This document shows, piece after piece, positions 9,269 through 46,863 of a DNA stretch of 64,000 nt. The DNA comes from an uncultured Desulfobacteraceae bacterium (GTDB taxonomy: Bacteria; Desulfobacterota; Desulfobacteria; Desulfobacterales; Desulfosalsimonadaceae). The notes under the pieces are model-generated. The model ran no database searches. It was not told where the DNA came from and was given only the letters and a program-made list of their open reading frames with translations. Made by a program: the position numbers and the translations under genes. Within the stretch, counting starts at the first letter, position 1; every line of letters starts with the position of its first letter. The DNA lies in contig CAZRES010000004.1 of the NCBI GenBank assembly GCA_964598885.1, forward strand, positions 5,545 through 69,544, given 5' to 3'.

Positions 9269-9364
9269 CCGTTACGTTGGCAGCGAAGGCTTCTGTCGGC
9301 AAATATTGTTTGACAATGATGCGGCAACTGGTTTACTGATAGTAATTGGAATATTCGTATAATC

Positions 9365-10379: not shown

Positions 10380-11335
10380 ATCCGTCATCCTTTGATCATC
10401 TGCTGAATGGTTTTATTGACTTCCTTTCCACGGAAAAGGGGTATGCGGATAACACGTGCCGGGCCTATGCCAGGGACCTGGAAGGTTTTATCGCCTATTT
10501 CGTGGGCCACCGTGCCCTGGCGGTGACCGGCGGCGATGCTGACGAGGACGCCGAGACCGACGATGATCCTGCCGTTGATATGGACCGGATCAGCAATCTG
10601 ATGATCCGGGGCTACCTGGCCCAGCTGCATCGTCAGGGATTGAAGAAAACATCCATGGCCCGCAAGCTGTCGGCGGTGCGGTCGTTTTTTAAATTCATGG
10701 AACGAAACGGGGTGATCTCCGGCAATCCGGCGGAAACCGTGCTGACGCCGAAGCAGGACAAACCCATCCCCAATTATTTAAGTGTGGATGATGTGTTCCG
10801 CCTGCTCGATTCCGTTACTACCGAGAATATTGCCGGAAAGCGGGATCGCGCGATTTTGGAAACGCTGTATTCTACCGGCATTCGGGTGTCGGAACTGGCG
10901 GGATTGAATTTTCCGGATGTGGATTTTTCGGCAAAAACCATCCGGGTGACGGGGAAGGGGAACAAGGAGCGCGTCGTGCCCATCGGCAATGCCGCTCTTG
11001 CGGCCGTCCGTGTTTACCGGGACAGCCTGACCGCCAAGGGAAACGTGGTCAACCCCAAAGGCGCGCTGTTTCTCAACAAGAACAAGGGGCGGCTTTCGCC
11101 AAGGTCCGTGGCGCGGTTGCTGGAAAATGCGGCCCGTAAGGCCGGCATGACCGTACCCGTGGCGCCTCATGACCTGCGGCATTCATTCGCCACGCACATG
11201 CTGGATGCCGGGCTTGACCTGCGGATGGTCCAGGAGCTGCTGGGTCACAGCCGGCTCTCCACCACCCAGAGGTACACCCATGTCAGCATTGACCGGCTTA
11301 TGGCCGCATATGACCAGGCGCATCCAAGAAAATAG
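10376..11335 (+). CDS. xerC: Tyrosine recombinase XerC
   Basis: 319-aa ORF. It has an N-terminal SAM-like domain (FLSTEKGYADNTCRAYARDL) and catalytic R..HDLRHSFATHML..LGHSRLSTTQRYTH. It sits in the conserved xerC-hslV-hslU order. Confidence 0.85.
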   Translation: MNPSSFDHLLNGFIDFLSTEKGYADNTCRAYARDLEGFIAYFVGHRALAVTGGDADEDAETDDDPAVDMDRISNLMIRGYLAQLHRQGLKKTSMARKLSAVRSFFKFMERNGVISGNPAETVLTPKQDKPIPNYLSVDDVFRLLDSVTTENIAGKRDRAILETLYSTGIRVSELAGLNFPDVDFSAKTIRVTGKGNKERVVPIGNAALAAVRVYRDSLTAKGNVVNPKGALFLNKNKGRLSPRSVARLLENAARKAGMTVPVAPHDLRHSFATHMLDAGLDLRMVQELLGHSRLSTTQRYTHVSIDRLMAAYDQAHPRK

Positions 11336-15433: not shown

Positions 15434-16366
15434 GTGAAAAAAGACATTCTCACGCTGGCCGAACTGGAAAAGGCCGACTTTGAGCGTTTTTTCCGGAGAG
15501 CCGCGGAACTTAAAACCCGGCACGGGCAGGGAATCAGGGATCGAAGCCTTCTGGATAAATCGGTGGGGCTGATTTTTGACAAACCTTCCACCCGCACCCG
15601 GCTTTCGTTTGAAGTGGCCGCCATCCAGCTCGGCGGGACCCCCATTTTTATTGCCGCGGCGGATACGCAAATGGCCAGAAACGAACCGGTGGAAGATACG
15701 GCCCGTGTTCTGTCCCGGTATCTGGATGCCGTGGCCATACGAACGTTTTCCCAGTCCCTGGTGGAAGAATTCGCCGCCACAGCCGATATTCCGGTCATCA
15801 ACGCGTTGACCGACGAGCATCATCCCTGCCAGATTTTAAGCGATCTCATGACGGTGCTTGAATGTAAGGACCGGTTGGAGAACCTCCGGATCGCTTGGAT
15901 CGGCGACGGCAACAACATGGCCAATTCCTGGATCGACGCCGCGGCCGTACTTGGGTTTGAGCTGGTGCTGGCCTGCCCGGATGGATACGCGCCCAATGAA
16001 GCTGTTCTCGACCGAGCGATGACAAAAAGCAGCCGGATACGCCTGGTGCGGGATCCGTTTGAAGCCGCAGCCGGGGCTGATGTGATCAATACCGATGTCT
16101 GGGCCAGCATGGGACAGGAACATGAGGCCGACTCCAGAAAAAATGTCTTTTCCCCGTATTGCGTGGACGCGAAAATGGTCGGCGCCGCGGCCGAAGACGT
16201 TATAGTCATGCACTGCCTGCCGGCCCATCGGGGTGAAGAAATTGCGGCCGATGTCCTGGAAGGGGAGCGCTCTGTGGTCTGGGATCAGGCGGAGAACAAG
16301 CTTCATATGCACAAGGCTATTCTTGATGTGCTGATTTCGGGACGTCTGGTTGCCACAACAAAATAA
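15434..16366 (+). CDS. argF: Ornithine carbamoyltransferase
   Basis: 310-aa ORF with STRTRLSFE, HPCQ and HCLPAHRGEE motifs. Confidence 0.92.
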   Translation: MKKDILTLAELEKADFERFFRRAAELKTRHGQGIRDRSLLDKSVGLIFDKPSTRTRLSFEVAAIQLGGTPIFIAAADTQMARNEPVEDTARVLSRYLDAVAIRTFSQSLVEEFAATADIPVINALTDEHHPCQILSDLMTVLECKDRLENLRIAWIGDGNNMANSWIDAAAVLGFELVLACPDGYAPNEAVLDRAMTKSSRIRLVRDPFEAAAGADVINTDVWASMGQEHEADSRKNVFSPYCVDAKMVGAAAEDVIVMHCLPAHRGEEIAADVLEGERSVVWDQAENKLHMHKAILDVLISGRLVATTK

Positions 16367-22830: not shown

Positions 22831-22905
22831 GCGGGAATAACTCAGTGGTAGAGTGCGACCTTGCCAAGGTCGAAGTCGCGAGTTCGAATCTCGTTTCCCG
22901 CTCCA
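22831..22905 (+). tRNA. tRNA-Gly (anticodon GCC), CCA encoded
   Basis: The cloverleaf can be read by eye. The acceptor is gcgggaa/ttcccgc, the D arm actc-agtggta-gagt, the anticodon stem cgacc/ggtcg with loop ttGCCaa, and the T arm has ttcgaat. The 3' end is tcca. Confidence 0.95.
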
Positions 22906-22914
22906 TTTTTTTTA

Positions 22915-22989
22915 GGCGGCATAGCCAAGTGGTAAGGCAACGGCCTGCAAAGCCGATATTCTCCGGTTCGAATCCGGATGCCGCCTCCA
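22915..22989 (+). tRNA. tRNA-Cys (anticodon GCA), CCA encoded
   Basis: The acceptor is ggcggca/tgccgcc, the anticodon loop ctGCAaa, and the T arm tccgg-ttcgaat-ccgga. The 3' end is tcca. Confidence 0.95.
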
Positions 22990-23243
22990 TATCTCCCTCC
23001 TAATTTCAATCAGTTATATTTTTCAGACACCCCAAAAAGGTTTGTCCAAAGCGAATTATTTGTTTTGGCGCGATTGGATATTCACGACATCAGCTTTACC
23101 CTTTTTATGAGGTATTGACATACTTTCGGAGGATAAACCCCACGGGCACGGCTTAAAACATTCCATTGCTTTTCGCGTGGAAGAATCCGGGGTGGATTTT
23201 AAAAGCGTATGGGGGCGGGTACCCATCATGATCAAAAGCAGAT

Positions 23244-23319
23244 GAAGTTCCACGACGCCCTTGGTCGTGCGGAACTTCGCCAAGGGATAACATGTTCCAT
23301 CATAACGATATGATGGAAC
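23244..23319. repeat. Cluster of overlapping or alternative hairpins in a non-coding A/T-richer spacer
   Basis: Hairpin A is gaagttccacgac (23244-23256) with gtcgtgcggaacttc (23264-23278), one bulge. Hairpin B, which overlaps A, is cccttgg (23258-23264) with ccaaggg (23280-23286). Hairpin C is gttccatcat (23294-23303) with atgatggaac (23310-23319). Confidence 0.8.
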
Positions 23320-23557
23320 TGTCGGGGGGAAAAAACAGTTTATTTTAGAAGCGGAATTTGTGTTTTTCGGGAGCCGCCATCTGGCAGATGCCGAGGGTGT
23401 CATAAAACAGTTCTTAGAACAACAACTGCCATGATCTATGGGAGTTGGTAAGGGCCTCGTTTATCGAATTACTAACGAAAATTGGTTTTTGGACCAGAGT
23501 GACATAATAAATAATATTGATTTTTCAGTCTATTGTAAAACTAATTAAAATTCGAAC

Positions 23558-23585
23558 TTGACATTCATACGATATTGGTTAAAAT
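23558..23585 (+). promoter_or_regulatory. Putative sigma70-type promoter upstream of the ComEA-like gene
   Basis: The -35 is ttgaca (23558-23563), followed by a 16-nt spacer and a -10 taaaat (23580-23585), in an A/T-rich tract about 105 nt upstream of the ATG. Confidence 0.45.
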
Positions 23586-23690
23586 CCCGGAACATTCACT
23601 GCCCGTGTTCATATCCAAAGTGGGCGTTTTCAGGAGGCGGCATCATCGGTTTTATCAAACTTCATATTTCATATGAAAGGAGAACTTCTT

Positions 23691-24020
23691 ATGAAGAAAT
23701 TGATTAAAATCTCCGTAAGTATCATGCTTTTCGGATTTTTGCTGGCAATGGTCGGCTCTGCATGGGCCGCCGATCATGGAGGTAAGGTCAATATCAATAC
23801 CGCGACACTGGAAGAGCTGACGTCGTTGAAAGGTGTGGGAGAAGCCCTGGCTCAGCGGATTATTGATTATCGAAAGGAATCGGGACCCTTTGCGGACGCC
23901 CAGGATCTGCTCAACGTCAAGGGAATTGGACCCAAAATTCTATCCAATAATTTAGACAAGATTACTATCGGTGATGCCGTTAAAGAAGCTGAAGAACAAG
24001 CAACGGAGGAAGATCAATAA
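23691..24020 (+). CDS. ComEA-family helix-hairpin-helix DNA-binding protein (secreted or periplasmic)
   Basis: The ATG at 23691 follows aaggag. There is a signal peptide ([26 protein letters not shown]), then [51 protein letters not shown], which is a tandem HhH. Confidence 0.85.
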
Positions 24021-24071
24021 TTTCCGGGACTGAGTCAGCCGGATAAACATGGTCGAGATGCCGTTCCTGTC

Positions 24072-24118
24072 GCAACCAAAAAACCCGGGGCAGATGCTGC
24101 CCCGGGTTTTTTGGTTGC
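24072..24118. terminator. Bidirectional intrinsic terminator
   Basis: gcaaccaaaaaacccggggcag / ctgccccgggttttttggttgc is a GC-rich stem flanked by an A-run and a T-run. It lies between the convergent ComEA-like gene (+) and the small Cys-rich ORF (-). Confidence 0.75.
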
Positions 24119-24314
24119 ATGGGAGGATTCTGGGATTAGAAGGTAAACTTCAGCATAAACAGCATTTGCTAACTTTTTTCATCCATGATTTCATTTGCTT
24201 GCATGATTTATAAAAGGGGAAGCGAGGATGTGCCGATAGTGGTGAAAGGACAGACGCCGCCAAAAAGTTCATCTGTCCATACAGTGGTGGGACATACCAT
24301 CTCGCAATGAGCCG

Positions 24315-24494
24315 TCAATAAGTCGAATATCTGCCGGAACAGGAAATTCCCCGGGCCAGAAGTATCCGGATTTTATCCAAAAGTCCGCATTGCTCCGCAC
24401 ACTGAGGCAGACTTTTACTATGGACGCAATTTCTGCAGGGACTCTTGACCAGGTATCCGATTTCAAAATCAAATTTATCGCGTTTAATGATCAT
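24315..24494 (-). CDS. Candidate 59-aa cysteine-rich (zinc-ribbon-like) protein, below the length cut-off of the ORF track
   Basis: My own translation of the minus strand gives MIIKRDKFDFEIGYLVKSPCRNCVHSKSLPQCAEQCGLLDKIRILLARGISCSGRYSTY*. It has six Cys, including CxxC and CxxxC. It overlaps the listed 67-aa ORF (24269..24472) in another frame. It is divergent from the DUF2760/Hsp70 operon. Confidence 0.4.
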   Translation of the reverse strand: MIIKRDKFDFEIGYLVKSPCRNCVHSKSLPQCAEQCGLLDKIRILLARGISCSGRYSTY

Positions 24495-24746
24495 TTTGTT
24501 TCTTCCGATGGGATATGTTTAAAATTACATAATTAACATACCATCTAATGTGAATCAATGAAATTTCAGGATGGCGGTTTTTATCCGGCATGAGGTTCTG
24601 TCTCCCCCCGGAAACGCGAAGACGGACGGCGTAGCGGAAAAGATCCTTGACTCATGGAACGAATGATTTTAATTAATTGCCTCTGCAATGAAGCGTCCAC
24701 CATCGCGCGTTTTTAACGAAGAAAAATCACAACCCGGGAGAAACAC

Positions 24747-25580
24747 ATGAGTGTCGTGAAATCATATTCCAGGCGGATTTTGTTCTGGTGCCTCATATTT
24801 TTCATTATTGTTGCCATGATCGTGATGTTTGCCGGTTATGCGGCATGGCGTTTTCTTTTTTCATCGCTGCCCATGCCGGTACTTTATGAGGCGGCGGCGG
24901 GGAACCCTGATTTTCAGAAGGGATTGGATCAGATCCGGCCCTGGATCGATTATGCCGGACATTTTTTTATTCCATTGACCGGAGGAATTTGTTTGCTGCT
25001 GGCTCTGATTTTCTGGCTGATTCTGCGCCGCTCCATTTCTAACGTCGCGTTTCGGGAGGGAATGGCCGCCGGCAAAGATGCCGGAAAAATAAAGGTGCCC
25101 CCGGATCGCGCCAAACCGAAAAGAGACGCGGCCGAACGTTCGGTACCCGATGATGCCGGTCCTGAAGTCCGGGAATCGGAGGCAGACCGGCAGGCCCGCA
25201 TGCAGCGTCTTTATCTGCATCTGCTTTCCGTGTTTCAACGGGAAGGACGAATGGTGGATTTTTTTACCGAGGATTTAACCCCGTATGATGATGCCCAGAT
25301 CGGGGTGGCGGTACGCAACATTCATGAAAACTGCGCCAAGACCCTTCAGAAATATTTAAAGCCGAAGGCCGTTATTGAAAAACAGGAGGGGGAGGAGATC
25401 CGTGTGCCCAAAAATTTTGATGTGGATGCCATTAAACTGACCGGCAATGTATCCGGTGAGCCGCCTTTTAACGGAATTCTGCGCCACAGGGGATGGCAGG
25501 CCGGCCGGATTGAAGTGCCGGTGCTCAATCCCGGTCATAACCCTCGGATCATCGCCCCGGCAGAGGTGGAAATTTTATAA
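24747..25580 (+). CDS. Membrane protein with a C-terminal DUF2760-like domain
   Basis: 277-aa ORF with two hydrophobic helices (ILFWCLIFFIIVAMIVMFAGYAAW; FFIPLTGGICLLLALIFWLIL) and a charged linker. The C-terminal part is RLYLHLLSVFQREGRMVDFFTEDLTPYDDAQIGVAVRNIHENC...LTGNVSGEPPFNGILRHRGWQA. Confidence 0.75.
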   Translation: MSVVKSYSRRILFWCLIFFIIVAMIVMFAGYAAWRFLFSSLPMPVLYEAAAGNPDFQKGLDQIRPWIDYAGHFFIPLTGGICLLLALIFWLILRRSISNVAFREGMAAGKDAGKIKVPPDRAKPKRDAAERSVPDDAGPEVRESEADRQARMQRLYLHLLSVFQREGRMVDFFTEDLTPYDDAQIGVAVRNIHENCAKTLQKYLKPKAVIEKQEGEEIRVPKNFDVDAIKLTGNVSGEPPFNGILRHRGWQAGRIEVPVLNPGHNPRIIAPAEVEIL

Positions 25581-25604
25581 GTTACATAGTAATGGAGCAG
25601 AGAT

Positions 25605-27422
25605 TTGACTGAGCCTTTTTATATCATCGGAATTGACCTGGGCACCACCAATAGCGTGGTGGCCTACACTCCCATCATTATTAACCCGGAGGTCCCGGAT
25701 AGCTCGGATCGCATTAAAATTTTAGATATTCCTCAGTTTGTGGATGCCGGAGCAATAGAAGAGCGTCCGGTGCTTCCGTCCTATATTTATGCTCCGAGTG
25801 TCCATGAAGCATCGAATGGAGCGTTTTCCCTGCCGTGGGACCCGGAAAACACCATGATCATCGGTGAATATGCCCGGCAGCGCGGGGCAGAAGTTCCGCA
25901 GCGCATGATTGCCTCAGCTAAATCCTGGCTCTGCCATACCATGATCGATCGAAACAAGGCGGTGCTGCCATGGGAGCGTCCCGATGAGGTCCCGGGATTT
26001 TCACCGGTAGAAGCATCGGCCGCGATCCTCGGTCATATCCGCCAGGCCTGGAATTTCCGGATGGCCGGCGGGGATCCAAACCTGAACATGGAACATCAGG
26101 AAATTTTTCTGACCGTGCCCGCTTCTTTTGACGCCGTAGCCAGGGAGCTGACGGTTCGAGCCGCGGAAATGGCCGGGCTGCCGCGTATTACGCTGCTGGA
26201 GGAGCCCCAGGCCGCTTTTTACGCATGGATTGCCTCTTCAGGAGATCAATGGCGGGGAAAAGTCCGCAAAGGGGATTTGGTCATCGTTTGCGACATCGGC
26301 GGCGGCACGGCTGATTTCAGTCTCATCCGGGTTTCCGAGGACAACGGTGAACTGGCCCTGGAGCGGATCGCCGTGGGAGATCACCTTCTGGTGGGCGGCG
26401 ACAATATGGACCTTGCACTGGCGTATCACGTATCCCGCAAAATGGCCGATGCCGGCACCCGTCTGGATTCCTGGCAGATGCGGGGGCTGGTGCAGAACTG
26501 CCGGTCGGCCAAGGAAGTGATGCTGTCTGATGCGGCCGTTTCCGAGTATCCGTTGACCATTCTGGGCCGGGGGAGCAGCCTGATCGGCGGCACGCTGAAA
26601 ACCTCCCTGGCGCCCACCGAGGTCGATACGCTGATGATGGACGGATTTTTCCCGTATTGCCGGTTCGATGAGACGCCCAAAAACGCATCACGGATGGGAC
26701 TCAAGGAAGCCGGGCTTTCCTATGAAGCCGATCCGGCCATCACCCGGCATTTGGCCCGGTTTCTGCACCGGCAGAAATCCGACGCCGATTCGGATGGCAG
26801 CCGTATCCCCACGGCGATACTGTTCAACGGCGGCGTGATGAAGGCTGCCTCTCTCCGGGAACGGATCATCCGCGCCATTGATTCCTGGCGCCCCGCGGGG
26901 TCCGAATCTGCGGTTCGGGAGATTCTCGCCCGGGATACGGATTTAGCCGTGGCAAGAGGCGCCGCCTATTACGGCATGGCCCGCCGCGGTTCCGGCATCC
27001 GGATCCGCGGCGGTCTCGGCAAATCCTATTATATCGGCGTGGCCGCATCCATGCCGGCGGTTCCCGGCATGCCGGCCCCGGTCAAGGCTCTTTGCGTGGC
27101 CCCGTTCGGAATGGAGGAAGGGAGCCACGCCCAAATCCAGGACCGGGAATTTGTTCTGGTGGTGGGCGAACCCGTGCGTTTCGACTTTTTGGGGTCCTCC
27201 GTTCGGAAAACCGACGCCATCGGCGATGTTGTCGAGGACTGGCAGGGAGACATTGGAGAGATCACCACCGTGGAAACCACTCTTGATGGCGAAACCGGCG
27301 GCATCGTCCGGGTAAATATCGAGATCAGCGTAACCGAAATCGGCACCATTGAACTCTGGTGCGCATCCCAGGATGATGAACAACGGTGGAAACTCGAATT
27401 CAACGTGCGGGAACAGGTCTGA
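25605..27422 (+). CDS. Non-canonical Hsp70-family ATPase (short paralogue)
   Basis: 605-aa ORF with a TTG start after ggag. Hsp70/actin-fold motifs are IGIDLGTTNSVVAY, VCDIGGGTADFSLI and LFNGGVMK. It has no DnaK-type substrate-binding domain. Its private C-terminal beta-rich module ends IELWCASQDDEQRWKLEFNVR. Confidence 0.9.
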   Translation: MTEPFYIIGIDLGTTNSVVAYTPIIINPEVPDSSDRIKILDIPQFVDAGAIEERPVLPSYIYAPSVHEASNGAFSLPWDPENTMIIGEYARQRGAEVPQRMIASAKSWLCHTMIDRNKAVLPWERPDEVPGFSPVEASAAILGHIRQAWNFRMAGGDPNLNMEHQEIFLTVPASFDAVARELTVRAAEMAGLPRITLLEEPQAAFYAWIASSGDQWRGKVRKGDLVIVCDIGGGTADFSLIRVSEDNGELALERIAVGDHLLVGGDNMDLALAYHVSRKMADAGTRLDSWQMRGLVQNCRSAKEVMLSDAAVSEYPLTILGRGSSLIGGTLKTSLAPTEVDTLMMDGFFPYCRFDETPKNASRMGLKEAGLSYEADPAITRHLARFLHRQKSDADSDGSRIPTAILFNGGVMKAASLRERIIRAIDSWRPAGSESAVREILARDTDLAVARGAAYYGMARRGSGIRIRGGLGKSYYIGVAASMPAVPGMPAPVKALCVAPFGMEEGSHAQIQDREFVLVVGEPVRFDFLGSSVRKTDAIGDVVEDWQGDIGEITTVETTLDGETGGIVRVNIEISVTEIGTIELWCASQDDEQRWKLEFNVREQV

Positions 27423-27436
27423 CGGGAAGATTCAGC

Positions 27437-30196
27437 ATGGAGGAAAAGCGATACATCATCGGCATCGATCTTGGGACCACCAATTCTGCTGTTTCTTACG
27501 TGGATCTGCATGCCGAAAATACAAAAAAACGGGGCATCCGGCTGTTCAAGATTCCTCAGCTGACCGGTCCGGGGGAATTGAGCGCCCTGTCGGTGTTGCC
27601 GTCCTTTTGCTATCTGCCCGGCGCTTATGATATATCCGAGGCGGCCATTCAACTGCCCTGGGAACATGATGATCCCGGGTTTGTGGGCAGGTTCGCCCGG
27701 GATCACGGTTCCCGCATCCCCGCCCGGCTGGTGGCGTCGGCCAAGAGCTGGCTCTGCCACTCCGGAGCGGACCGGCGGGCCCCCATCCTGCCCTGGGGCT
27801 CGGGGGATGATGTCCGGAAAATTTCACCGGTCCAGGCCACTGCTCTCTATCTGAACCATATCCGGCTGGCATGGAACAGCCGGCAGGGCGATGACGACGC
27901 CCTTTATCTTGAAAACCAGACCATCATCATCACGGTGCCGGCGTCCTTTGATGAAGTGGCCCGCGATCTGACCGTCGAGGCCGCCGGCATGGCGGGGTTG
28001 AAAAATGTGACCCTTCTGGAAGAGCCCCTGGCCGCTTTTTACAGCTGGCTGATCGCCCATGAGACCGATTGGCAGGATCACATCCGGCCCGGCGAATTGG
28101 TGCTGGTTTGCGATGTGGGCGGCGGCACCACGGATTTCACTCTCATTACCCTGGATGAAACCGAAGGCGCGCCCCGTTTTGTCCGGATCGCCGTGGGAGA
28201 CCATCTGATCCTTGGAGGCGACAATATTGATCTGGCCCTGGCCCGGCATGTGGAAAAAGACTTGGCCGGGCCGGCGCCCCTGGCCGGAGATCAGTGGAAA
28301 ACCCTTTGCCACTTGTGCCGGCAGGCTAAGGAAAATATACTCAATTCCGATATCCCCGCCGATACCGTGACTATGATGGGCAAGGGCACGCGCCTGATCG
28401 GCGGGACCCTGAGTGCCAAAATTCGACGGGAGAGCCTTGAAAAAATTGTACTGGACGGGTTTTTTCCTCTGGTAAAGCGCGACAGCGGTATTCCCCCATC
28501 CGCAATCCGCAAGGGGATTTCCGAGTTCGGCCTTCCCTATGCCACGGAACCGGCCATCACCCGGCACATCGGTATATTTCTGGAAAAACACCGGGATGAA
28601 GTACATAATCTGCTGCAAAAGAAGCCGCTTCCCGATTTCATCCTTTTTAACGGCGGCTCATTGAAAGCGACCGTGGTCCAGGAGCGGATCCGGGAGGCCA
28701 TCCGGGCCTGGTTTTCCGAGCCTGACGAACGTCTTCCCAGGGTCCTGAAAAATTCCGATCCGGATCTGGCCGTTGCCCTGGGAGCGGGATACTATGGCCT
28801 GGTCAAGGCGGGGCAGGGGGTGCGCGTGGGCAGCGGCAGCGCCCGGGCCTATTATCTCGGCCTTTCCGGCACTGCGGCTGAAAAGGAAAATCAAGCCATA
28901 TGCCTGGTGGAACGCGGCACCGAGGAAGGAGTGCGGATTCATCTGCCGGACCGCGTGTTTGAGGTGCTCACAAATCAACCGGTTCATTTCGCGCTTTACA
29001 GTTCCAGTTTTCGAAGCGGCGACAAAACCGGAGACCTGATTCCCGTGGACGACACCCTGACGCCTCTTCCGCCGGTGCAGACCGTGATCCAGTTCGGGCA
29101 AAAGGGGGTGAAGACCGCCATTCCCGTACAGATAGAAGCCGAATATACGGAAATGGGTATATTGGCCATCTGGTGCCGGTCTCTGTCCAGTCCGCACCGA
29201 TGGCGGCTTCAGTTCCAACTGCGGAGCGCCGATGCCGATACCGGGGTCCGGGACGCCGAGGTGTTTGAAGCTGATGTGGTGGATAAAGCCGTCTCTTTGC
29301 TTGAACAGGCTTTTTCCGAGCATGCCGACGGGGCGTCGCTGAACCGGATCGTTAAATCCATATCCGGGGTTGTGGGGCGCTCCCGGGAAAAATGGCCGCT
29401 CAGCTTTATCCGGACGCTGGCGGATCAGCTGTTAAGAATGCTTCCCAACCGCCGGTATTCCCCGGAACATGAAATCCGCTGGATGAACCTGACCGGGTAC
29501 TGCTTGCGACCCGGATTCGGCGATGGGCTGGATGAACAGCGAATCCGGCAATTATGGAAGATCTACAAACCGGGTGTTTTGTTCGGCAAAAATCCCCAGG
29601 CCAGCCAGGAATGGTGGATCCTCTGGCGTCGGGTGGCGGGCGGGCTTTCTTCCGGTCAGCAGCGGCAGTTTATCCAGGATGCGCGATCCCGGATTATTCC
29701 GCGAAAAGGAACAAAGATCAAAATCCGGCCCCAGGAACACTATGAGGTCTGGATGGCCGTTGCCAATATGGAACGCCTGGGCGTAAGGGATAAAATCGAG
29801 TTCGGACGGCAGCTGTTAAAAACCATTCAGCCCCGGAAGATTATTTTGCAACTGGTCTGGTCTCTATCGCGGATCGGGGCCAGGGACCTGCTTTACGGTC
29901 CGGTGGACCGAGTGGTGCCGTCTTCGGAAGCGGCGGAATGGGCGAACCGGCTCATGGAACTGGAGCCGCGCAACCCGATTCCCGTGGGCAATGCGCTGGT
30001 TCAAATGACGCGAAAGACCGGGGATCGCGCCCGGGATATGGATTCAAAGACCATTGATCGCGTGTCGGTTTGGCTGGAACAGCACCAGATGACCGATAAG
30101 ATAAGGTTTCTGACCATGGTGATTCCCATGGAGCGTCAGGACGAAACCCTGATGTTCGGGGAGGAACTTCCTTCCGGAATCACCCTCAAACAATAA
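27437..30196 (+). CDS. Non-canonical Hsp70-family ATPase (long paralogue with a helical C-terminal extension of about 320 aa)
   Basis: The internal ATG at 27437 gives MEEKRYIIGIDLGTTNSAVSYV. Other motifs are VCDVGGGTTDFTLI and LFNGGSLK. The module homologous to the preceding gene ends LAIWCRSLSSPHRWRLQFQLR. It is followed by a W/R/L-rich helical tail. Confidence 0.9.
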   Translation: MEEKRYIIGIDLGTTNSAVSYVDLHAENTKKRGIRLFKIPQLTGPGELSALSVLPSFCYLPGAYDISEAAIQLPWEHDDPGFVGRFARDHGSRIPARLVASAKSWLCHSGADRRAPILPWGSGDDVRKISPVQATALYLNHIRLAWNSRQGDDDALYLENQTIIITVPASFDEVARDLTVEAAGMAGLKNVTLLEEPLAAFYSWLIAHETDWQDHIRPGELVLVCDVGGGTTDFTLITLDETEGAPRFVRIAVGDHLILGGDNIDLALARHVEKDLAGPAPLAGDQWKTLCHLCRQAKENILNSDIPADTVTMMGKGTRLIGGTLSAKIRRESLEKIVLDGFFPLVKRDSGIPPSAIRKGISEFGLPYATEPAITRHIGIFLEKHRDEVHNLLQKKPLPDFILFNGGSLKATVVQERIREAIRAWFSEPDERLPRVLKNSDPDLAVALGAGYYGLVKAGQGVRVGSGSARAYYLGLSGTAAEKENQAICLVERGTEEGVRIHLPDRVFEVLTNQPVHFALYSSSFRSGDKTGDLIPVDDTLTPLPPVQTVIQFGQKGVKTAIPVQIEAEYTEMGILAIWCRSLSSPHRWRLQFQLRSADADTGVRDAEVFEADVVDKAVSLLEQAFSEHADGASLNRIVKSISGVVGRSREKWPLSFIRTLADQLLRMLPNRRYSPEHEIRWMNLTGYCLRPGFGDGLDEQRIRQLWKIYKPGVLFGKNPQASQEWWILWRRVAGGLSSGQQRQFIQDARSRIIPRKGTKIKIRPQEHYEVWMAVANMERLGVRDKIEFGRQLLKTIQPRKIILQLVWSLSRIGARDLLYGPVDRVVPSSEAAEWANRLMELEPRNPIPVGNALVQMTRKTGDRARDMDSKTIDRVSVWLEQHQMTDKIRFLTMVIPMERQDETLMFGEELPSGITLKQ

Positions 30197-30365
30197 GGCG
30201 CTCGGGCGGAATGTTTCGGGTTGTTTCGTTCCGCTCTTGAGATTCGCCGGACAATAAGGTAGGTTGCCTCCATATGATTTGAGGAGAACGTGGCCGCATG
30301 ACGGCGTCGCGCCGTGACGGTCTGCGATCGTAACGTTTGGAAAAGAAAAAAGGAGATCCGGAACA

Positions 30366-30581
30366 ATGGGATCATCCGACAGGATTACCATCAACGCCCG
30401 CATCCGCATTCCCGCCGGGATTGTCGAAACTGTCGTTAAAAACGCCAAGCAGATCGCCGGGGTGGATGAAAAGGGAGTTTATCGGGTGGACACCGCGGAA
30501 AAACTCAATGAATTGATCGGTCATTTTCTGGAAGCCCGGGACTTTGCCGGATATGTCAGCGATATTCGAAATTATACATAG
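30366..30581 (+). CDS. Hypothetical 71-aa protein
   Basis: The ATG is preceded by aaaaggag with a 9-nt spacing. The composition is balanced (MGSSDRITINARIRIPAGIVETVVKNAKQIAG...). It ends 3 nt before the next ORF. I recognise no family. Confidence 0.5.
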   Translation: MGSSDRITINARIRIPAGIVETVVKNAKQIAGVDEKGVYRVDTAEKLNELIGHFLEARDFAGYVSDIRNYT

Positions 30582-31444: not shown

Positions 31445-33190
31445 ATGAGGGATGGCATGAAAAGACAAATAATGTTGCTTTTGTTTATTTTCCTAATGTG
31501 GCCCGGTCATGTGCTGCGGGCCGCTGATATTCCTACGAACGTGACCTTGAGCGCCACCGTCAATACGATCACGGTCACCTGGACCCGCGAAAGCCTGGCG
31601 GAAGGCTATTATGTATATTGGGGGACGACATCCGGCAATCTCAGCAACCGCGATCAGGTAGATTCTTCGGACACCAGCTACACCATTTCCGGGCTGCAGC
31701 AGGGGACGACCTATTATGTGGCGGTTTCATCATTCTCCGCCGGATCGGAATCCCAGAAATCCGTCGTCAAATCTATTACCACAAGCACGGATACGGCGGC
31801 TCCCCAAAAACCCTCAGGCCTGGACGTGACCGCCTTGAGCGCCGTCACCGGAACATCGGCGACCCTGCGCTGGAATGCCAATTCTGAAACCGATCTGAGT
31901 CATTACAATCTGTATTGGGGCACACTATCCGGCAATTACAGTGCGATAGTCGAAGCCGCCGTAAATGAGAATACCTCCTTTACCGTCACCGGCCTGAATG
32001 GAGCCATGCGCTATTACGCTGCCGTCACAGCTGTGGATGAAACGGGTAACGAATCGGATTTTTCCGATGAAATCATCATTGACACGCTTCCGGACACGCG
32101 GCCGCCAAAAGTTCCTGCAGGAGTGACCAGCCGCTTGAGTGGTTTTCGTGAAATCACCATCAGCATTGAAAACGGTAATTCCGCCATGGTCGATTTTGCC
32201 GGTCATATTATCCATTATGGAACCGCAGCAGGTCACTATACGAAAACTCTTGATATCGGCAACAGCATGACGCATGTTTTTGCCGATTTGACGGATGATA
32301 CCACATGGTTTTTTACCGTAAAGGCCTATGACGCCGACGGTAATGAAAGCAATCCATCTGAAGAGGTTTCTGCTGAAGTCGAGGATACCCGTGCATTTCT
32401 GGATCAGGAAAGTTTTGATGGCGGCTGTTTTATTTCATCAACGGGAACCAAATCCCCGGTTTGGCAGAAGGCGCTGTTTTTCGGACTGGCATTGGCCGTG
32501 ATCCTGTTATATGGTTGCTTAAGCAGACCACAAGTTGCGCTGATGGGAGCGATTTGTTCGGCGTTTATCCGGCGGTTTGTTCACCGGATTGCCGGCTGCC
32601 TGATGGCTGCGATGATTTTGGTCGGCGCCATGGCAGTGGAAGCGGATGCCGAAGAAAGGGTTGGCGACAATCTGGTGGGCGTGTCCGCCGGCTGGCTGAT
32701 CCCGGCGGAATCCGAATTTGAAAATCATTATGGAGACGACACGTATCCGGTTTTTGCGTTTTTTGAGCGCCGTATCGGGAAATTTTTTTCTGTGGGCGTC
32801 GAATCCGGGTTCATGAAAAAGACCGGTAAGCGGCTGACCGTATCCGGGGACCTTACAGATATTGACACCAAGTTTACCCTGGTGCCGGTGACAGCTTCCG
32901 TGAAACTGCACATGAAGCTGTTTCCCTATATTTCCGGATTTATCGGCGCCGGACCAGACTACTGGTATTGCCGCGAAAAGACCAAAATCAATGTCCGTGA
33001 TCCCAAAACGGAAAAATGGGTCGGCGGGTGGCACGGCCGGGCCGGTCTGACGCTTTTTAACATGGACCCGCGCTATGAGAACACCGGAGCGATCATTGAA
33101 ACGGTCTACAGCGAGATCGACCGGTTCGGCGGCAACCATCGTGATATCGGCGGCGTCAGTTTCCGACTCGGCTTTTTTTACGGATTTTAG
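31445..33190 (+). CDS. Composite exported protein: signal peptide, three FN3 domains, a GGCFISS motif plus TM helix, a second signal-peptide-like segment, and a small OMP-type beta-barrel ending in F
   Basis: 581-aa continuous ORF. FN3 signatures recur three times (VTWT..Y.VYWG, LRWN...Y.LYWG, YY.AV..D..GNES). GGCFI is at aa 326-330 (nt 32420-32434). The hydrophobic helix is ALFFGLALAVILLYGCL, followed by SR. M367 (nt 32543) opens MGAICSAFIRRFVHRIAGCLMAAMILVGAMAVEADA. The tail has alternating beta-strand-like sequence ending GVSFRLGFFYGF. Confidence 0.75.
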   Translation: MRDGMKRQIMLLLFIFLMWPGHVLRAADIPTNVTLSATVNTITVTWTRESLAEGYYVYWGTTSGNLSNRDQVDSSDTSYTISGLQQGTTYYVAVSSFSAGSESQKSVVKSITTSTDTAAPQKPSGLDVTALSAVTGTSATLRWNANSETDLSHYNLYWGTLSGNYSAIVEAAVNENTSFTVTGLNGAMRYYAAVTAVDETGNESDFSDEIIIDTLPDTRPPKVPAGVTSRLSGFREITISIENGNSAMVDFAGHIIHYGTAAGHYTKTLDIGNSMTHVFADLTDDTTWFFTVKAYDADGNESNPSEEVSAEVEDTRAFLDQESFDGGCFISSTGTKSPVWQKALFFGLALAVILLYGCLSRPQVALMGAICSAFIRRFVHRIAGCLMAAMILVGAMAVEADAEERVGDNLVGVSAGWLIPAESEFENHYGDDTYPVFAFFERRIGKFFSVGVESGFMKKTGKRLTVSGDLTDIDTKFTLVPVTASVKLHMKLFPYISGFIGAGPDYWYCREKTKINVRDPKTEKWVGGWHGRAGLTLFNMDPRYENTGAIIETVYSEIDRFGGNHRDIGGVSFRLGFFYGF

Positions 33191-40930: not shown

Positions 40931-41155
40931 TTACACTGAAACCGTTTCGGCAAGTCAATAAATATTTTGAAAACGCATGTTCGGGTTTATCTGCCCGAAC
41001 TGTGCGGCATTTCAAAGGATGCGGATAAATACGGAACTTGACATTTGGACCGGTTGGAAATAGAGATTAGAACAATTACCATAGAATTGAGTATTTTTCA
41101 CCGAATCCACCAGCGGATGGCGCACCATGTCTCGACATCATGCGATAATGTTTAA

Positions 41156-43843
41156 ATGAAACCGGAGAAATCAAAAAAAGCGATGTTCGGCGGGTTTTTC
41201 GGCGACAGGACCATGGCGAGGGATTTGACCGCCAGCCTGGTATTGATGGTGATCATGGTTTCCCTGATGACCATATGTGCCAGTTATCTTTATTTATTGC
41301 GCCAGGAAGAACGCCGCCTGGAGCAACTGGCCGAAGAATATCTGCTTTATCTGACCGACAGTCTGGAGCTTCCGCTCTGGACGTTGGATTATGACAGCGT
41401 CGCCAAGATTGCTGATTCCTATTTTGCCAATAATCTGGTGGCGAATCTGAAAATAACCGAACAGCATTATAAATCGCCCCGGGACTTTACCGTTCAGGTG
41501 CTGTTTTCCAAGTCCAAGTCGCCGGGAAAAGACAATGTTGTGGCGGCTTCCGAAGTTCGTCATGAAGGCCGAAGTATCGGCCATGTCGAGATCGGGTTGA
41601 CGCGCCGCGTGTATCAGGAGAATCTTAAACAGCTGCTGCAATCCAGTTTTTTAACCCTGCTTCTGATTATTTTATCATTGGTTCTGGTAACCAGTATTTT
41701 TCTGCGGTTATTCATGAAAAAACCCCTGGACGTTCTGATGCAGGGGATTCAACAGATTTCCATGGGAAAATATGATTATCGGTTTCCGCCCGCCAAACAG
41801 AAAGAAATTCGGTTGATCGTCTCCAATTTTATGGAAATGGCCGGCCAAATACGCCGCCGGGAAACAACGCTGGCGGCACTGAATCGTCAATTGGAAGTCG
41901 AAATCCGGGAGCGCCGAAAAGTCGAAGATGCCATTCGCGGCAACGAGGCCCAGCTCAGAGCCATTTTCGAATCTTCGGTGGACGGGATCCTTGTGGTGGA
42001 CAATTATCGAAACATCATTAATGCCAATAAACGGGTTTATCAGCTTTTGGGACTCCCGGATGAATTGCGGCATCACCGCTCCGAGGCGGACCTGATCGAG
42101 TTCCTGGCAGATCAGGTGAAAAATCCGGATGATTTTAAAACAAATACGGAAGCTTTGTATGCAACCGATTTGATACGGCTGGATGAAATATTTTTCAGGA
42201 ACGGCCAGGTGTTCGAACGATTTTCATGCCCCTTGAAGCAATCCGGCGCTATTATCGGCCGGGTCTGGAATTTTCGGGATGTCACCGACCGGAAACGGTC
42301 CATGCGGGCCTTGCGGGACAGTGAGGAGCGTTTTCGGCAATTGTCGGATGCCGCCCTGGAAGCCATTACTATCCACGACAACGGCGTCATTCTCCAAGTC
42401 AATCAACAGTTTTTGAAAATGTTCGGATACAACCGAAGGGAAGTGCTCGGAAAACGACAATTTTCGGATATTGTGGCCCCGGCGTTTCGGGATGAGCTGC
42501 CTATCAAAAATATCGCCGATATGGGGTTTCTGGAAGTCCAAGCCCTTCGAAAGGACGGGAACCGTTTCCCTGTGGTCATACGCAATCGCAGCATGACGTA
42601 TTATGAGAAAAATGTGGTTGTTTCCGTTATCCGTGATATTTCCGACCGGAAAGCCGCCGAGAAGGAAACCCGGATCCTGCGGGAAAAACTGGCCCTGTCG
42701 AAAAAAATGGAAGCTCTCGGCCTTTTAGCCGGCGGCGTGGCCCATGACCTGAACAACATTCTTTCCGGAATCGTCAGCTATCCGGAACTGCTGCTGATGA
42801 AACCGAACCTGGATGAAAAAACCCGCAAAGCGCTAAGGACCATTCAGGAATCCGGAGAACGGGCCGCTGCCGTGGTCAATGACCTGACCACCATTTCCAG
42901 GGGGGTGGCCTCTAACCGGGAAGCGTTGAACATCAACAATGTGGTCAGGGAATATCTGATTTCGCCGGAATTGCAAAAACTTAAAACGCATCATCCGGAC
43001 GTTAGAATCAAAACGGCTCTCGACCCGGAGCTGTTTAATATCGTCGGTTCGCGGCTTCATATCCGTAAAAGTCTGATGAATCTGGTGATCAATGCAGCCG
43101 AGGCGGTGGAGAAACAGGGGAAAATCGTGATATCCACCAGTAACTGCTATCTGGATAAACCATTAGCGGGTTACAGTGACGTCCAGATGGGAGAATATGC
43201 TTTGCTATCGGTTGCGGACAACGGTCCGGGCATTACCACGGAGGAAATTGGCAGGATCTTCGAGCCGTTTTACACCCGGAAGGTCATGGGCCGCAGCGGT
43301 ACGGGCCTCGGGCTGACCGTGGTATGGAACACCCTGCAGGATCACGGCGGCTATATCAATGTGATCAACCATCAACAAGGCACCCGATTTGACCTTTATT
43401 TTCCGATCACCCGCGAAAGCGTCGGTGATAGCGCATCCCGATTACCTCCGCAAGCTTTCCAGGGCCGGGGAGAAACGATTCTGGTAGTGGATGACGAGCA
43501 GAACCAGCGGGAGATCGCCTCACAGATGTTGACGGCATTAGGCTATAAGGCGGTGGCGGTTGCCAATGGCGACGAAGCTCTGGATTATGTGGCAAAACAG
43601 CCGGTGGATCTGATTTTGCTCGATATGATCATGCCGGCGTCTATGAGCGGACTGGAGACCTATCAACGCATTGTGCAGCAGTATCCCGGACAAAGGGCCG
43701 TGATCGCCAGTGGATTTTCCGTGACCGAAGACGTGGCAGCGGCTCAAAAGGCCGGAGCGGGCGAGTTTGTAAAGAAACCCTATAGCATCGAAAAGTTGGG
43801 AAGCGCCGTCAGAAAAGAACTGTCACGGAATGTGCCTGCATAA
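41156..43843 (+). CDS. Hybrid sensor histidine kinase / response regulator (TM - periplasmic region - TM - HAMP - 2x PAS - HisKA - HATPase - REC)
   Basis: 895-aa ORF. It has two hydrophobic segments, PAS-like blocks (LRAIFESSVDGILVVD; FRQLSDAALEAITIHD), the H-box GGVAHDLNNILSGI, G-boxes DNGPGI / GTGLGL, and a receiver ILVVDDE...DLILLDMIMP...KKP. Confidence 0.9.
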   Translation: MKPEKSKKAMFGGFFGDRTMARDLTASLVLMVIMVSLMTICASYLYLLRQEERRLEQLAEEYLLYLTDSLELPLWTLDYDSVAKIADSYFANNLVANLKITEQHYKSPRDFTVQVLFSKSKSPGKDNVVAASEVRHEGRSIGHVEIGLTRRVYQENLKQLLQSSFLTLLLIILSLVLVTSIFLRLFMKKPLDVLMQGIQQISMGKYDYRFPPAKQKEIRLIVSNFMEMAGQIRRRETTLAALNRQLEVEIRERRKVEDAIRGNEAQLRAIFESSVDGILVVDNYRNIINANKRVYQLLGLPDELRHHRSEADLIEFLADQVKNPDDFKTNTEALYATDLIRLDEIFFRNGQVFERFSCPLKQSGAIIGRVWNFRDVTDRKRSMRALRDSEERFRQLSDAALEAITIHDNGVILQVNQQFLKMFGYNRREVLGKRQFSDIVAPAFRDELPIKNIADMGFLEVQALRKDGNRFPVVIRNRSMTYYEKNVVVSVIRDISDRKAAEKETRILREKLALSKKMEALGLLAGGVAHDLNNILSGIVSYPELLLMKPNLDEKTRKALRTIQESGERAAAVVNDLTTISRGVASNREALNINNVVREYLISPELQKLKTHHPDVRIKTALDPELFNIVGSRLHIRKSLMNLVINAAEAVEKQGKIVISTSNCYLDKPLAGYSDVQMGEYALLSVADNGPGITTEEIGRIFEPFYTRKVMGRSGTGLGLTVVWNTLQDHGGYINVINHQQGTRFDLYFPITRESVGDSASRLPPQAFQGRGETILVVDDEQNQREIASQMLTALGYKAVAVANGDEALDYVAKQPVDLILLDMIMPASMSGLETYQRIVQQYPGQRAVIASGFSVTEDVAAAQKAGAGEFVKKPYSIEKLGSAVRKELSRNVPA

Positions 43844-43980
43844 CCAAGTGATAAAAATTTCTTGAGATAATCGATCATAAACGGTAAACAATTAAAATAT
43901 CCAAAAGATTGTATGTACGTGACGATTATTTTTGGAGATGTTCCATCACCTTCGATTCTGCGATAAATTCAAGGCAAAAA

Positions 43981-44898
43981 ATGGATTTAATAGGGAAAAT
44001 CAAGTTGGCTTTTAAAGAAGCGGAGATTTATCGCCGCCAGGGCCTGCTTGATGAAGCTCTGGATAAATATAAAGTCATCGAAGCACAGATCAAAGCCAAC
44101 CGCAATATTCGGCAACGGGGAGCTTTACTGAAAAAAATCGCTTTTATAATCGACGAACTGAATCAGAAGCTCAAGCGCAGCAAAGTCCCCGATCCTCCGC
44201 CAAAGGTTTCGGAAGATGCCCAGGCGCTGATGAAAGACATGTTTACTTTCGATGACCCGGAAATCAAGGGGTCATCGTTGCTGGGAGGCGCCATTGCATT
44301 GGCCAAATTCGGTCAATATGAAAAAGCCATAGAGGAGTTCAACCGGCTGCTGGAATATGAAAAATTTCGGGTGGAAGCGGCCAAAAATATCCTGTGGTGC
44401 TGGATGCAACAGAAATATTTGGATTACGCTGTTTCGTTGTTTCAGAAATGGCAGAAAATGCAGTTTTTTGAGCCCAACGAGGTAGAATTGCTGCGGGAAT
44501 ATTTTCAGGAAATGTTGACCGCCGCCGGCATTCAACGCGATATCGGCGGGGTTGCCCTCCAGAAAACCATTGAACCGGATTCGGAAATCAGTGATGACGA
44601 GATCCTTGATATTTCCGCCACCCGCTTTACCCTTCCCCGGGGAGGCCGAGAGGGCGAGTCAGTGGAATTCGAGGTCAGTTTTCAGTCAGGAAAATACATC
44701 CAATTTATTATCCCCAAAAAAGAAAAGGAGTTGATCAACGGGCTGAAGCCGGGGGACATGCTCAAAGATATTGTGTTTTATTCACCGGTGGCGATTTTTT
44801 CGGGCATCGGGTTTCTGTCTACCAAAAAGGCGATCGAGGCGGGGCCTAAACGGGGGGATTACAGTTTTTCCATTAAAATTATTGATATTAAATCATAA
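43981..44898 (+). CDS. TPR-like helical protein with a beta-rich C-terminal domain (function unknown)
   Basis: The internal ATG at 43981 gives MDLIGKIKLAFKEAEIYRRQGLLDEALDKYK. A second TPR-like unit is GGAIALAKFGQYEKAIEEFNRLLEY. The C-terminal ~100 aa (FTLPRGGREGESVEFEVSF...YSFSIKIIDI) looks like a beta-barrel but lacks a canonical PilZ RxxxR/DxSxxG motif. Confidence 0.6.
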   Translation: MDLIGKIKLAFKEAEIYRRQGLLDEALDKYKVIEAQIKANRNIRQRGALLKKIAFIIDELNQKLKRSKVPDPPPKVSEDAQALMKDMFTFDDPEIKGSSLLGGAIALAKFGQYEKAIEEFNRLLEYEKFRVEAAKNILWCWMQQKYLDYAVSLFQKWQKMQFFEPNEVELLREYFQEMLTAAGIQRDIGGVALQKTIEPDSEISDDEILDISATRFTLPRGGREGESVEFEVSFQSGKYIQFIIPKKEKELINGLKPGDMLKDIVFYSPVAIFSGIGFLSTKKAIEAGPKRGDYSFSIKIIDIKS

Positions 44899-44958
44899 TT
44901 GACGGTCTCATAAAAACACATCGGGATCAGCCCGCGCGGTCAAGGGAGATGGATTGTA

Positions 44959-46751: not shown

Positions 46752-46863
46752 CCGGACGGCCATTTCGGCGACGTCGGCGACCTGCGTGTTCCCGGTGGGC
46801 TGAAATTTTGAGATATGGGGTTTCGTCAGTACGGATCTTATTTAATCGATAAGGAGCCTGGCA

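Follow-up and report, generated by a model that had tools for sequence, protein, structure and literature searches.

The closest described systems to the locus treated here are Hsp70 machines. In DnaK–DnaJ–GrpE, an Hsp70-type nucleotide-binding domain (NBD) with all phosphate-binding and catalytic residues is followed by a beta-rich domain, and several components share one operon. Escherichia coli HscC is a specialised Hsp70 that keeps a recognisable substrate-binding domain (SBD) and has the J-protein partners DjlC (YbeV, membrane-anchored) and DjlB (YbeS). As functional analogues only, BiP–Grp170–Sec63 and mtHsp70–Tim44–Mge1 offer a smaller and a larger ATPase of the Hsp70 family, the larger one with a helical C-terminal extension, together with a membrane protein that tethers the ATPase where clients emerge. 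Beyond these, a 2026 review in FEBS J calls the bacterial DnaK derivatives besides HscA and HscC unexplored 'dark matter', proposes for those containing an NBD a nucleotide-exchange factor (NEF)-like role as DnaK co-chaperones, and, in the passages searched, does not mention a linkage to DUF2760 (PMC13580251). Here we describe a large and clean example from within this gap, with thousands of members: a three-gene operon at positions 24747–30196 of a 64,000-nt stretch of DNA (the window) from an uncultured Desulfobacteraceae bacterium (GenBank assembly GCA_964598885.1, contig CAZRES010000004.1, forward-strand positions 5,545 to 69,544). Its first open reading frame (ORF) encodes a DUF2760 protein (D), and the second and third encode Hsp70-type ATPases (A and B).

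We read these three genes as one dedicated Hsp70-type machine on the cytoplasmic side of the inner membrane, with D as its anchor and co-factor and without a J-protein or GrpE in cis, and give this reading a probability of about 45%. The operon is laid out as follows, in window coordinates:

24747–25580, + strand: gene D, membrane-anchored DUF2760 protein, 277 aa, ATG start (ORF; Pfam PF10816)
25593–25596, + strand: GGAG ribosome-binding site, 8 nt before the TTG of gene A (sequence)
25605–27422, + strand: gene A, lid-less Hsp70-type ATPase, 605 aa, TTG start (ORF; Pfam HSP70)
27437–30196, + strand: gene B, Hsp70-type ATPase that carries DUF3731 at its C-terminus, ATG start, 919 aa (ORF; Pfam)

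The genes are co-directional and lie 24 nt (D/A) and 14 nt (A/B) apart, exactly as a preliminary description of the locus had stated. For B, a longer GTG start at 27386 would overlap gene A; we favoured the ATG because homologues begin 'M.....RYIIGIDLG'. The sequence families themselves are not new: public annotation already carries the domains, under the labels 'DUF2760' and 'Hsp70 family protein'. Neither DUF2760 nor DUF3731, nor their Pfam numbers, were found in the searchable literature, which also yielded no functional characterisation of the operon, in agreement with the earlier statement that no function has been experimentally assigned to it.

D matched Pfam DUF2760 with 161.3 bits (gathering score 25 bits; E = 1.1e-47; aa 156–275, profile positions 5–124 of 124), and the same profile matched 40 out of 40 diverse relatives of D. 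This, together with two hydrophobic segments, bears out the proposal that the first gene encodes a DUF2760 protein with two transmembrane helices. Its parts are:

24777–24851, + strand: predicted transmembrane helix 1, ∼aa 11–35, boundaries approximate (Kyte–Doolittle; AlphaFold2 (AF2) helix 3–40)
24960–25031, + strand: predicted transmembrane helix 2, ∼aa 72–95, followed by 'RR' (Kyte–Doolittle; AF2 helix 54–104)
25059–25178, + strand: charged, disordered linker, aa 105–144 (AF2 predicted local distance difference test (pLDDT) <50 for residues 109–142)
25179–25577, + strand: conserved cytoplasmic alpha/beta domain (the DUF2760 domain), aa 145–277 (alignment; AF2)

The N-terminus of D, 'KSYSRR', is positively charged and precedes helix 1. 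With basic residues before the first helix and after the second, the positive-inside rule would place both termini of D in the cytoplasm, for the N-terminus probably so. The predicted periplasmic loop between the helices is short (∼35 aa) and poorly conserved, and the linker varies in length and sequence across the family. The C-terminal domain, which is built from three helices and then seven strands in the AF2 model, holds 19 invariant columns over 40 members that are 29–49% identical to the window protein, and the chain almost always stops one or two residues past a near-invariant 'APAEVEI'. Domain and C-terminus are equally conserved whichever ATPase gene follows.

Membrane association looks like a trait of the whole D family, since at least one transmembrane segment was found by Kyte–Doolittle analysis in 129 of 139 full-length representatives and most of the ten others begin with a similar amphipathic helix (type 'FF(K/R)ILFDGxFA'). 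The term 'membrane-tethered', used of the operon before, is therefore well chosen. Eight of the representatives without a transmembrane segment (P0342, P0355, P0357, P0375, P0377, P0383, P0385 and P0386) have in common a motif such as 'RIFQAI..FF(K/R)ILFDG.FA', which may anchor the protein in the plane of the membrane in place of the two transmembrane helices, and in some relatives (P0355; also P0387, not flagged as lacking a transmembrane segment) a long Ala/Glu-rich helix follows it. The D family comprises 1728 representatives at 50% clustering and >6700 clusters at 90%; a separate protein search gave 2391 D homologues at 90% clustering. No sequence relative of D was found among PDB sequences.

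Similar to HscC with DjlC and DjlB, the operon thus sets a non-housekeeping Hsp70 paralogue beside a dedicated membrane-anchored co-factor. Unlike those partners, D has no J-domain: none of D, A and B gave a DnaJ-family Pfam match, and no HPD tripeptide was seen on reading D or the DUF3731 region. A further difference from the HscC system is the presence of two ATPases in one operon.

Both ATPases belong to the Hsp70 family, with Pfam HSP70 (PF00012; cut-off 20.6 bits) matching A with 67.7 bits (8.4e-19) and B with 59.8 bits (2e-16). Their parts, as far as they are delimited here, are:

27437–28807, + strand: NBD of B, aa 1–457 (HHalign against a DnaK profile; invariant motifs)
26985–27419, + strand: linker and beta module of A, aa 461–605 (alignment with B)
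28808–29230, + strand: linker and ten-strand beta module of B, aa 458–598 (AF2 strands 471–594)
29267–30193, + strand: all-alpha C-terminal domain of B, aa 611–919, at the place of the Hsp70 lid (Pfam; AF2 helices 612–907)
29459–30187, + strand: Pfam DUF3731 within B, aa 675–917 (Pfam)

A and B are 42% identical across all 605 aa of A (E = 7e-159), and in searches of both against solved structures only the DnaK NBD was matched (∼1e-12), in line with the earlier view that the two are paralogues of each other rather than of dnaK. Across Desulfobacterales, B homologues are 60–90% identical. HHalign aligned residues 7–480 of B to the DnaK profile (probability 99.4%, E = 5e-21), the match stopping where the NBD does, at residue 480. 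Every sequence motif quoted for the three proteins in the preliminary description is present, the Hsp70/actin ATPase motifs included. Across 49 A and 61 B sequences, no variation was seen in DLGTTNS, the lysine of SAKSWL, LLEEP, DxGGGTxD, GGDNxD or NGG, a set that covers the phosphate-1 (DxGTTxS), phosphate-2 (DxGGGTxD) and adenosine (GG) motifs and the catalytic Lys, Glu, Asp and Thr of the Hsp70 superfamily; in the alignment to DnaK, the SAKSWL lysine corresponds to Lys70, LLEEP to Glu171 and DxGGGTxD to Asp194 and Thr199. Judged by these residues, both A and B are catalytically competent and neither is a pseudo-ATPase.

Outside the NBD, no sequence similarity to the DnaK system was detected. 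A and B clearly lack the helical lid (SBD-alpha) and the hydrophobic VLLLD linker of DnaK, the latter being replaced by G-[VI]-R-[VI]-x-x-G (G-I-R-I-R-G-G in A, G-V-R-V-G-S-G in B), each version conserved within its family. The residue aligned with DnaK Arg167, which we take to be a J-domain contact, is a Thr, and Asn170 aligns with a Glu. The operon further departs from DnaK–DnaJ–GrpE in having two ATPases and a membrane-anchored partner. By NCBIfam, A and B belong to no named bacterial Hsp70 subfamily (DnaK, HscA, HscC or YegD), with best scores far under the cut-offs (HscA, 88.9 against 708; DnaK, 63 against 648; YegD-type PRK11678, 25–29 against 331). The DnaK derivatives covered by the review (PMC13580251), YegD among them, are comparable in that they keep an NBD while their SBD is truncated or replaced; YegD consists of the NBD only, whereas A and B add the beta module and B also adds DUF3731.

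The beta module, ∼125 residues and ten strands, follows the linker at the very position that SBD-beta takes in canonical Hsp70s, and A ends 3 residues past it. When the AF2 model of B (pLDDT 77) was searched with Foldseek, constructs made of NBD plus SBD-beta came first (bovine Hsc70 1–554, lid-less BiP and DnaK without SBD-alpha; ∼610–630 columns, E ∼1e-18), ahead of an NBD-only entry that aligned over 476 columns with E = 3.6e-14. The alignments to lid-less Hsp70 structures extended ∼130 columns past the NBD, and the best 50 listed matches were all of the Hsp70 family. These model-based results suggest that the module is a divergent SBD-beta, which is likely but unproven. SBD-beta homology was not recovered by sequence and was dropped at that level: a profile of the module found no Hsp70 among PDB sequences, and HHalign comparisons with the SBD in two profiles (one of E. 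coli DnaK and human HSPA8, one of 77 DnaK sequences) gave P 0.06–0.44 with inconsistent registers, the apparent SBD signal being traced to the last NBD helix. Given the position of the module and the Foldseek ranking, the earlier statement that both proteins lack a DnaK-like SBD was too strong. Likewise, the module can be called 'private', as it was, by sequence, and probably not by predicted structure.

The C-terminal part of B had been described as a W/R/L-rich helical extension of about 320 aa. It is all-alpha in the AF2 model, as expected; it is also a known Pfam domain, DUF3731 (PF12531, 'DNA-K related protein'; 271.9 bits against a gathering score of 25 bits, E = 8.6e-81, profile positions 1–248 of 248). 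The stretches 'CLRPGFG' and 'ILWRRVAGG', visible in the B sequence, contain the RPG and WRR motifs of the Pfam description of DUF3731. PDB sequences held no relative of this domain. Five 'E..W....R' units picked out by eye were considered as internal repeats and discarded, as HHalign self- and pairwise comparisons gave nothing.

To place the operon among its relatives, we scanned one genome per species with a DUF2760 alignment, which gave at least 560 confirmed stretches; the best 80, all from Desulfobacterota, were examined. Gene order was counted at loci with at least 5.2 kb of downstream sequence (n = 52, Desulfobacterota), with ORFs scored against the window proteins. The full D–A–B order was present at 35 of them, D–B at 8, D–A at 3 and D alone at 6. 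D–A–B also occurs in Desulfonema magnum, on three Syntrophobacterales contigs, on a Comamonadaceae megaplasmid, on a conjugative Bradyrhizobium plasmid and on a 3.2-Mb Burkholderia cenocepacia replicon, and the flanking genes are unrelated between distant loci. The plasmid pTs485 of Thiodictyon syntrophicum carries a D–A pair and no B gene. The recurrence of the DUF2760/Hsp70/Hsp70 arrangement in bacterial genomes, asserted earlier, is thus borne out across phyla by this neighbourhood survey, in Desulfobacterales, Syntrophobacterales and Alpha- and Betaproteobacteria. A third protein search returned mostly further Desulfobacterota, and the taxonomic breadth came from the plasmid collection.

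In that collection (72,556 plasmid records), DUF2760 was found in 11 records and DUF3731 in 10, all of which were among the 11; in 10 out of 10 cases the DUF3731 match lay 4.2–4.6 kb downstream of DUF2760 on the same strand. Seven of the records with DUF2760 are 1.3–3.5 Mb replicons of Burkholderia and Caballeronia. No phage record gave a tblastn match, and D had no PHROG match. The distribution of the operon is not that of a mobile or defence-type element; B, moreover, keeps 60–67% identity across an order, where synteny is local.

The short gaps of the window are replaced in Proteobacteria by overlaps of 4–32 nt between D and A and between A and B, implying translational coupling. Such overlaps lie at 9336–9339 and 11179–11210 (32 nt) in locus L083, at 9360–9363 in L084 and at 8336–8339 in L252, the 4-nt ones being of the ATGA type. 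Proteobacterial A proteins score higher against the window A, and proteobacterial B proteins higher against the window B, which places the A/B duplication before these phyla diverged.

Neither a J-domain gene nor a GrpE gene adjoins the operon in the window or at any of the 80 related loci, which upholds and widens the earlier observation for the window. Similarly, when 604 flanking ORFs from the 80 loci were clustered in view of further conserved partner genes, only lineage-local synteny emerged (an HHH/ComEA-like gene upstream in 16, a GDPD gene downstream in 9), and none was retained as a partner.

Some loci depart from the common pattern. In L019, a 91-aa ORF with DUF3731 similarity (16091–16366) lies 2.5 kb downstream of an intact triad and is possibly the fragment of a second copy. 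The B-type gene of L028 (5927–7801) encodes only 624 aa without DUF3731, suggesting that it is truncated, frameshifted or misassembled. A solitary D has a sensor histidine kinase as the next gene on the same strand in two of its three independent contexts: a 910-aa membrane HisKA/HATPase_c protein in Desulfosarcina (L060, 8954–11686; also L043, L068 and L072) and, in Desulfobotulus (L078, 3971–6226), a PAS-HisKA_3 kinase whose start lies 3 nt beyond the DUF2760 ORF. Such adjacency may be due to chance or may reflect a second kind of partner for DUF2760.

A working mechanism for the proposed membrane-bound machine can be outlined from these parts. D would span the membrane twice and present its conserved alpha/beta domain on the flexible charged linker, where the domain would contact A and B as a docking and regulatory partner, that is, as a co-chaperone acting on their ATPase cycle. 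ATP turnover by A and B could then drive the binding and release, or the pulling, of clients at the membrane or emerging from it. No cis-encoded J-protein or GrpE would take part in this cycle, and D might perhaps supply a nucleotide-exchange or recruiting function. A and B might perhaps cooperate as a pair, in the manner of an Hsp70 with Hsp110 or Grp170; B compares with Hsp110/Grp170 in size relationship and helical C-terminal extension only. The role suggested earlier, in remodelling or sensing as opposed to general proteostasis, is likewise a putative one.

Several results weigh against this reading. At 6 of the 52 loci, D has no Hsp70 neighbour, so D can exist, or act, without an adjacent A or B. 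Neither CIRCE nor any other stress-regulon mark was found upstream of the operon. Model confidence is moderate (pLDDT 74 and 77, predicted TM-score 0.37 and 0.51). As the SBD-beta identity of the module lacks sequence support, the binding of peptide clients is unproven. Finally, the comparison of D with GrpE gave little. The E. coli GrpE sequence used here was checked against 1DKG and is identical to it except for G122D, the mutation of that entry; GrpE was represented by a profile of 3 sequences and later by one of 69 (metagenome scan), and DUF2760 by alignments of 40 and 385 sequences. HHalign of DUF2760 against GrpE was non-significant (P 0.45 with the 3-sequence profile, 0.23–0.24 with the 69-sequence profile), like unrelated controls, and Pfam GrpE (PF01025) matched 0 of 40 DUF2760 members at E up to 10.

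What connects D to GrpE is a structural lead. The Foldseek search of the PDB with the full-length D model returned no significant match; its top entry, and the sole one with a probability >0.1, was GrpEL1, a nucleotide-exchange factor of Hsp70, in its complex with mortalin (9blt_B). This match covers 150 of 161 target positions and has a probability of 0.51 (E = 0.17; TM-score 0.22/0.33; root-mean-square deviation 8.9 Å). Relaxed alignments of DUF2760 and GrpE are collinear (gFDP/kFDP, GNV/GTV, HRGW/QxGY, IIAPAEVEI/RvLRPAmVgV), with scores no better than those of unrelated controls. GrpE homology of DUF2760 was rejected for want of profile support and kept only as a weak structural lead; that DUF2760 is GrpE-like at all seems unlikely to us.

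In a bolder version, which we hold to be doubtful, DUF2760 would constitute an unrecognised class of membrane-anchored co-chaperones, maybe a very divergent GrpE-like exchange factor and tether, that makes of an ancient bacterial pair of lid-less Hsp70s, comparable in function to Hsp70 with Hsp110/Grp170, an inner-membrane motor independent of J-proteins. This would make the operon a prokaryotic counterpart of BiP–Grp170–Sec63 or mtHsp70–Tim44–Mge1. The operon shares with these systems the pairing of a smaller with a larger Hsp70-family ATPase that has a helical C-terminal extension, the membrane protein and, weakly suggested for D, a GrpE-like fold. It differs in that D shows no detectable homology to Tim44, Sec63 or GrpE and that DUF3731 has no detectable sequence relative among solved structures. 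If D does regulate the ATPase cycle, it would represent a new co-chaperone class and an example of how Hsp70 motors are coupled to membranes when J-domains are absent. From Desulfobacterota to Burkholderia the genes keep one order, which probably extends to Vibrio cholerae, with two intact ATPase sites and an obligatorily membrane-associated partner. The system is also tractable, with orthologues in B. cenocepacia and probably in V. cholerae and with a soluble D domain of ∼130 residues.

A different possibility, which we consider fairly unlikely, is a signalling or sensing module. Here A and B would set the conformation or stability of D, which would act as a sensor or regulator in the membrane, and the output would be regulatory instead of protein folding. 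DnaK and DjlA feeding Rcs signalling, and DnaK controlling sigma-32, offer analogies. The histidine kinases after solitary D in Desulfosarcina and Desulfobotulus, an MCP-signal protein after the triad in Desulfonema and the presence of a periplasmic loop between the D helices would fit such a role, as would the regulation of a probable counterpart in V. cholerae. There, VC1375–VC1373 is presumably the D–A–B equivalent, an assignment based on annotation strings. VC1373 and VC1374 are both named 'DnaK-related protein' and lie in the operon VC1373–1375 (PMC9201469, PMC5816637), which is listed among in-biofilm-repressed genes (PMC9201469). The quorum regulator HapR binds the VC1375 promoter and activates it in vivo and in vitro (PMC10328515). 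Mutation of the sensor kinase vc1639 lowers the transcript of VC1374 (PMC5636140). On the other hand, the D loop is too small and too variable for a typical ligand sensor, the kinase adjacency is perhaps due to chance, given how many histidine kinases these genomes encode, and no transcription factor or output domain is conserved beside the triad in the 80 loci. Proteins annotated as DnaK-related have also been detected in Thiodictyon and Photobacterium in the proteomic literature; this is an annotation-level record that does not imply orthology to A or B.

It is somewhat less likely that A and B are ordinary auxiliary DnaK paralogues, which would serve general proteostasis with the housekeeping DnaJ and GrpE or help DnaK in a NEF-like manner, with D being incidental. 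The tight, phylum-spanning linkage and the translational coupling argue that D is integral. In addition, Thr and Glu stand where DnaK has Arg167, the presumed J-domain contact, and Asn170, and the VLLLD linker needed for J-stimulated allostery is replaced. The intact NBDs and the absence of a co-chaperone gene in cis are nonetheless what auxiliary paralogues would show, and a co-chaperone role for NBD-bearing derivatives is what the review proposes (PMC13580251).

We also considered an anti-phage or conflict system, in which the Hsp70-like pair would sense infection and the membrane protein would be the effector. This is improbable. One locus has a defence-island context, the sole one seen: on pTs485 (L084, 1–15100), the D–A pair lies amid genes annotated as anti-phage (DUF3780, DUF1156, PLD-like), a VapC toxin and a TIR-domain protein. 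In a screen with PADLOC-DB 2.0, there was furthermore a weak match to the candidate system PDC-M61B (E = 1.7e-5). However, A and B scored only 21.7 and 16.1 bits against PDC-M61B, the 21.7-bit match covering ∼100 residues of the common ATPase fold, and D had no PADLOC or PHROG match. The operon was absent from phage records and found in only 11 of 72,556 plasmid records, its proteins contain no nuclease, protease, pore-forming or NADase effector domain, and its high conservation, vertical synteny and housekeeping neighbours point away from defence. Least probable of all is a membrane-attached actin-like filament system of the MreB, FtsA or ParM type, which would profit from the membrane anchor encoded alongside and from Pfam MreB_Mbl scores of 36 bits for B (cut-off 27) and 25.6 for A, and which is contradicted by stronger HSP70 matches on the same residues, by NCBIfam MreB scores of 29–38 bits against cut-offs of 293–366, by the uniformly Hsp70 Foldseek matches of B among the best 50 listed and by the Hsp70-style domain after the NBD.

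The sequences that bound the operon include two hairpins:

24078–24113, + strand: hairpin and T-run (AAAAAACCCGGGGCAGATGCTGCCCCGGGTTTTTT) after the HHH/ComEA-like gene, taken as the 5' limit of the transcription unit (read from the sequence)
30200–30231, + strand: weak terminator-like hairpin, 4 nt past the stop codon of B (pattern scan, consensus match only)

Terminator-like sites in the region around 30200 are no commoner than in shuffled sequence. The HHH/ComEA-like gene upstream of the operon (23673–24020) has an HHH_3 match (3.7e-22). Between it and gene D lies an unusually long, A/T-rich spacer of 726 nt (24021–24746), in which no sigma-70-like, sigma-54-like or CIRCE match and no Rfam element above threshold was found. 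The sole Rfam match in the spacer, a sub-threshold His_leader on the minus strand (24075–24245; 30.8 bits against a gathering score of 49, E = 0.06), is probably due to chance. With no CIRCE, no sigma-54 promoter-like site and no Rfam element upstream, heat-shock and sigma-54 control of the operon were set aside.

The operon had also been placed in an A/T-richer stretch immediately after a tRNA pair, which does not hold. G+C is lowered to 0.43–0.45 at 23001–25000 only, that is, in intergenic DNA and the 5' part of gene D; it is 0.533 at 25001–26000 and 0.58–0.61 at 26001–30000, equal to or above the window average, so that the operon body spans 0.53–0.61. The tRNA-Gly/tRNA-Cys pair (22831–22989) lies 1.76 kb upstream of the operon, beyond the HHH/ComEA-like gene and the hairpin with its T-run. 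Of 20 related loci, 19 have no tRNAs; the exception, L025, has tRNA-Arg and tRNA-Pro at >5 kb from the operon. A genomic island at tRNAs was rejected, as no tRNA adjoins the operon in these 20 loci and the G+C of the operon body is not low.

Downstream of the operon, a 71-aa ORF with a plausible AGGAG upstream and no Pfam family lies between it and the GDPD gene (window 30366–30581, + strand). This region also encodes a secreted protein in which tandem fibronectin-III domains precede a C-terminal part resembling a membrane beta-barrel (window 31445–33190, + strand; L004, 14882–16618). The fibronectin-III protein and the GDPD phosphodiesterase are syntenic downstream of the operon in at least six related loci, which we take as local synteny only. 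Farther along the window, 41001–47000 forms a second stretch of lowered G+C (0.47–0.50), with a strongly positive GC skew.

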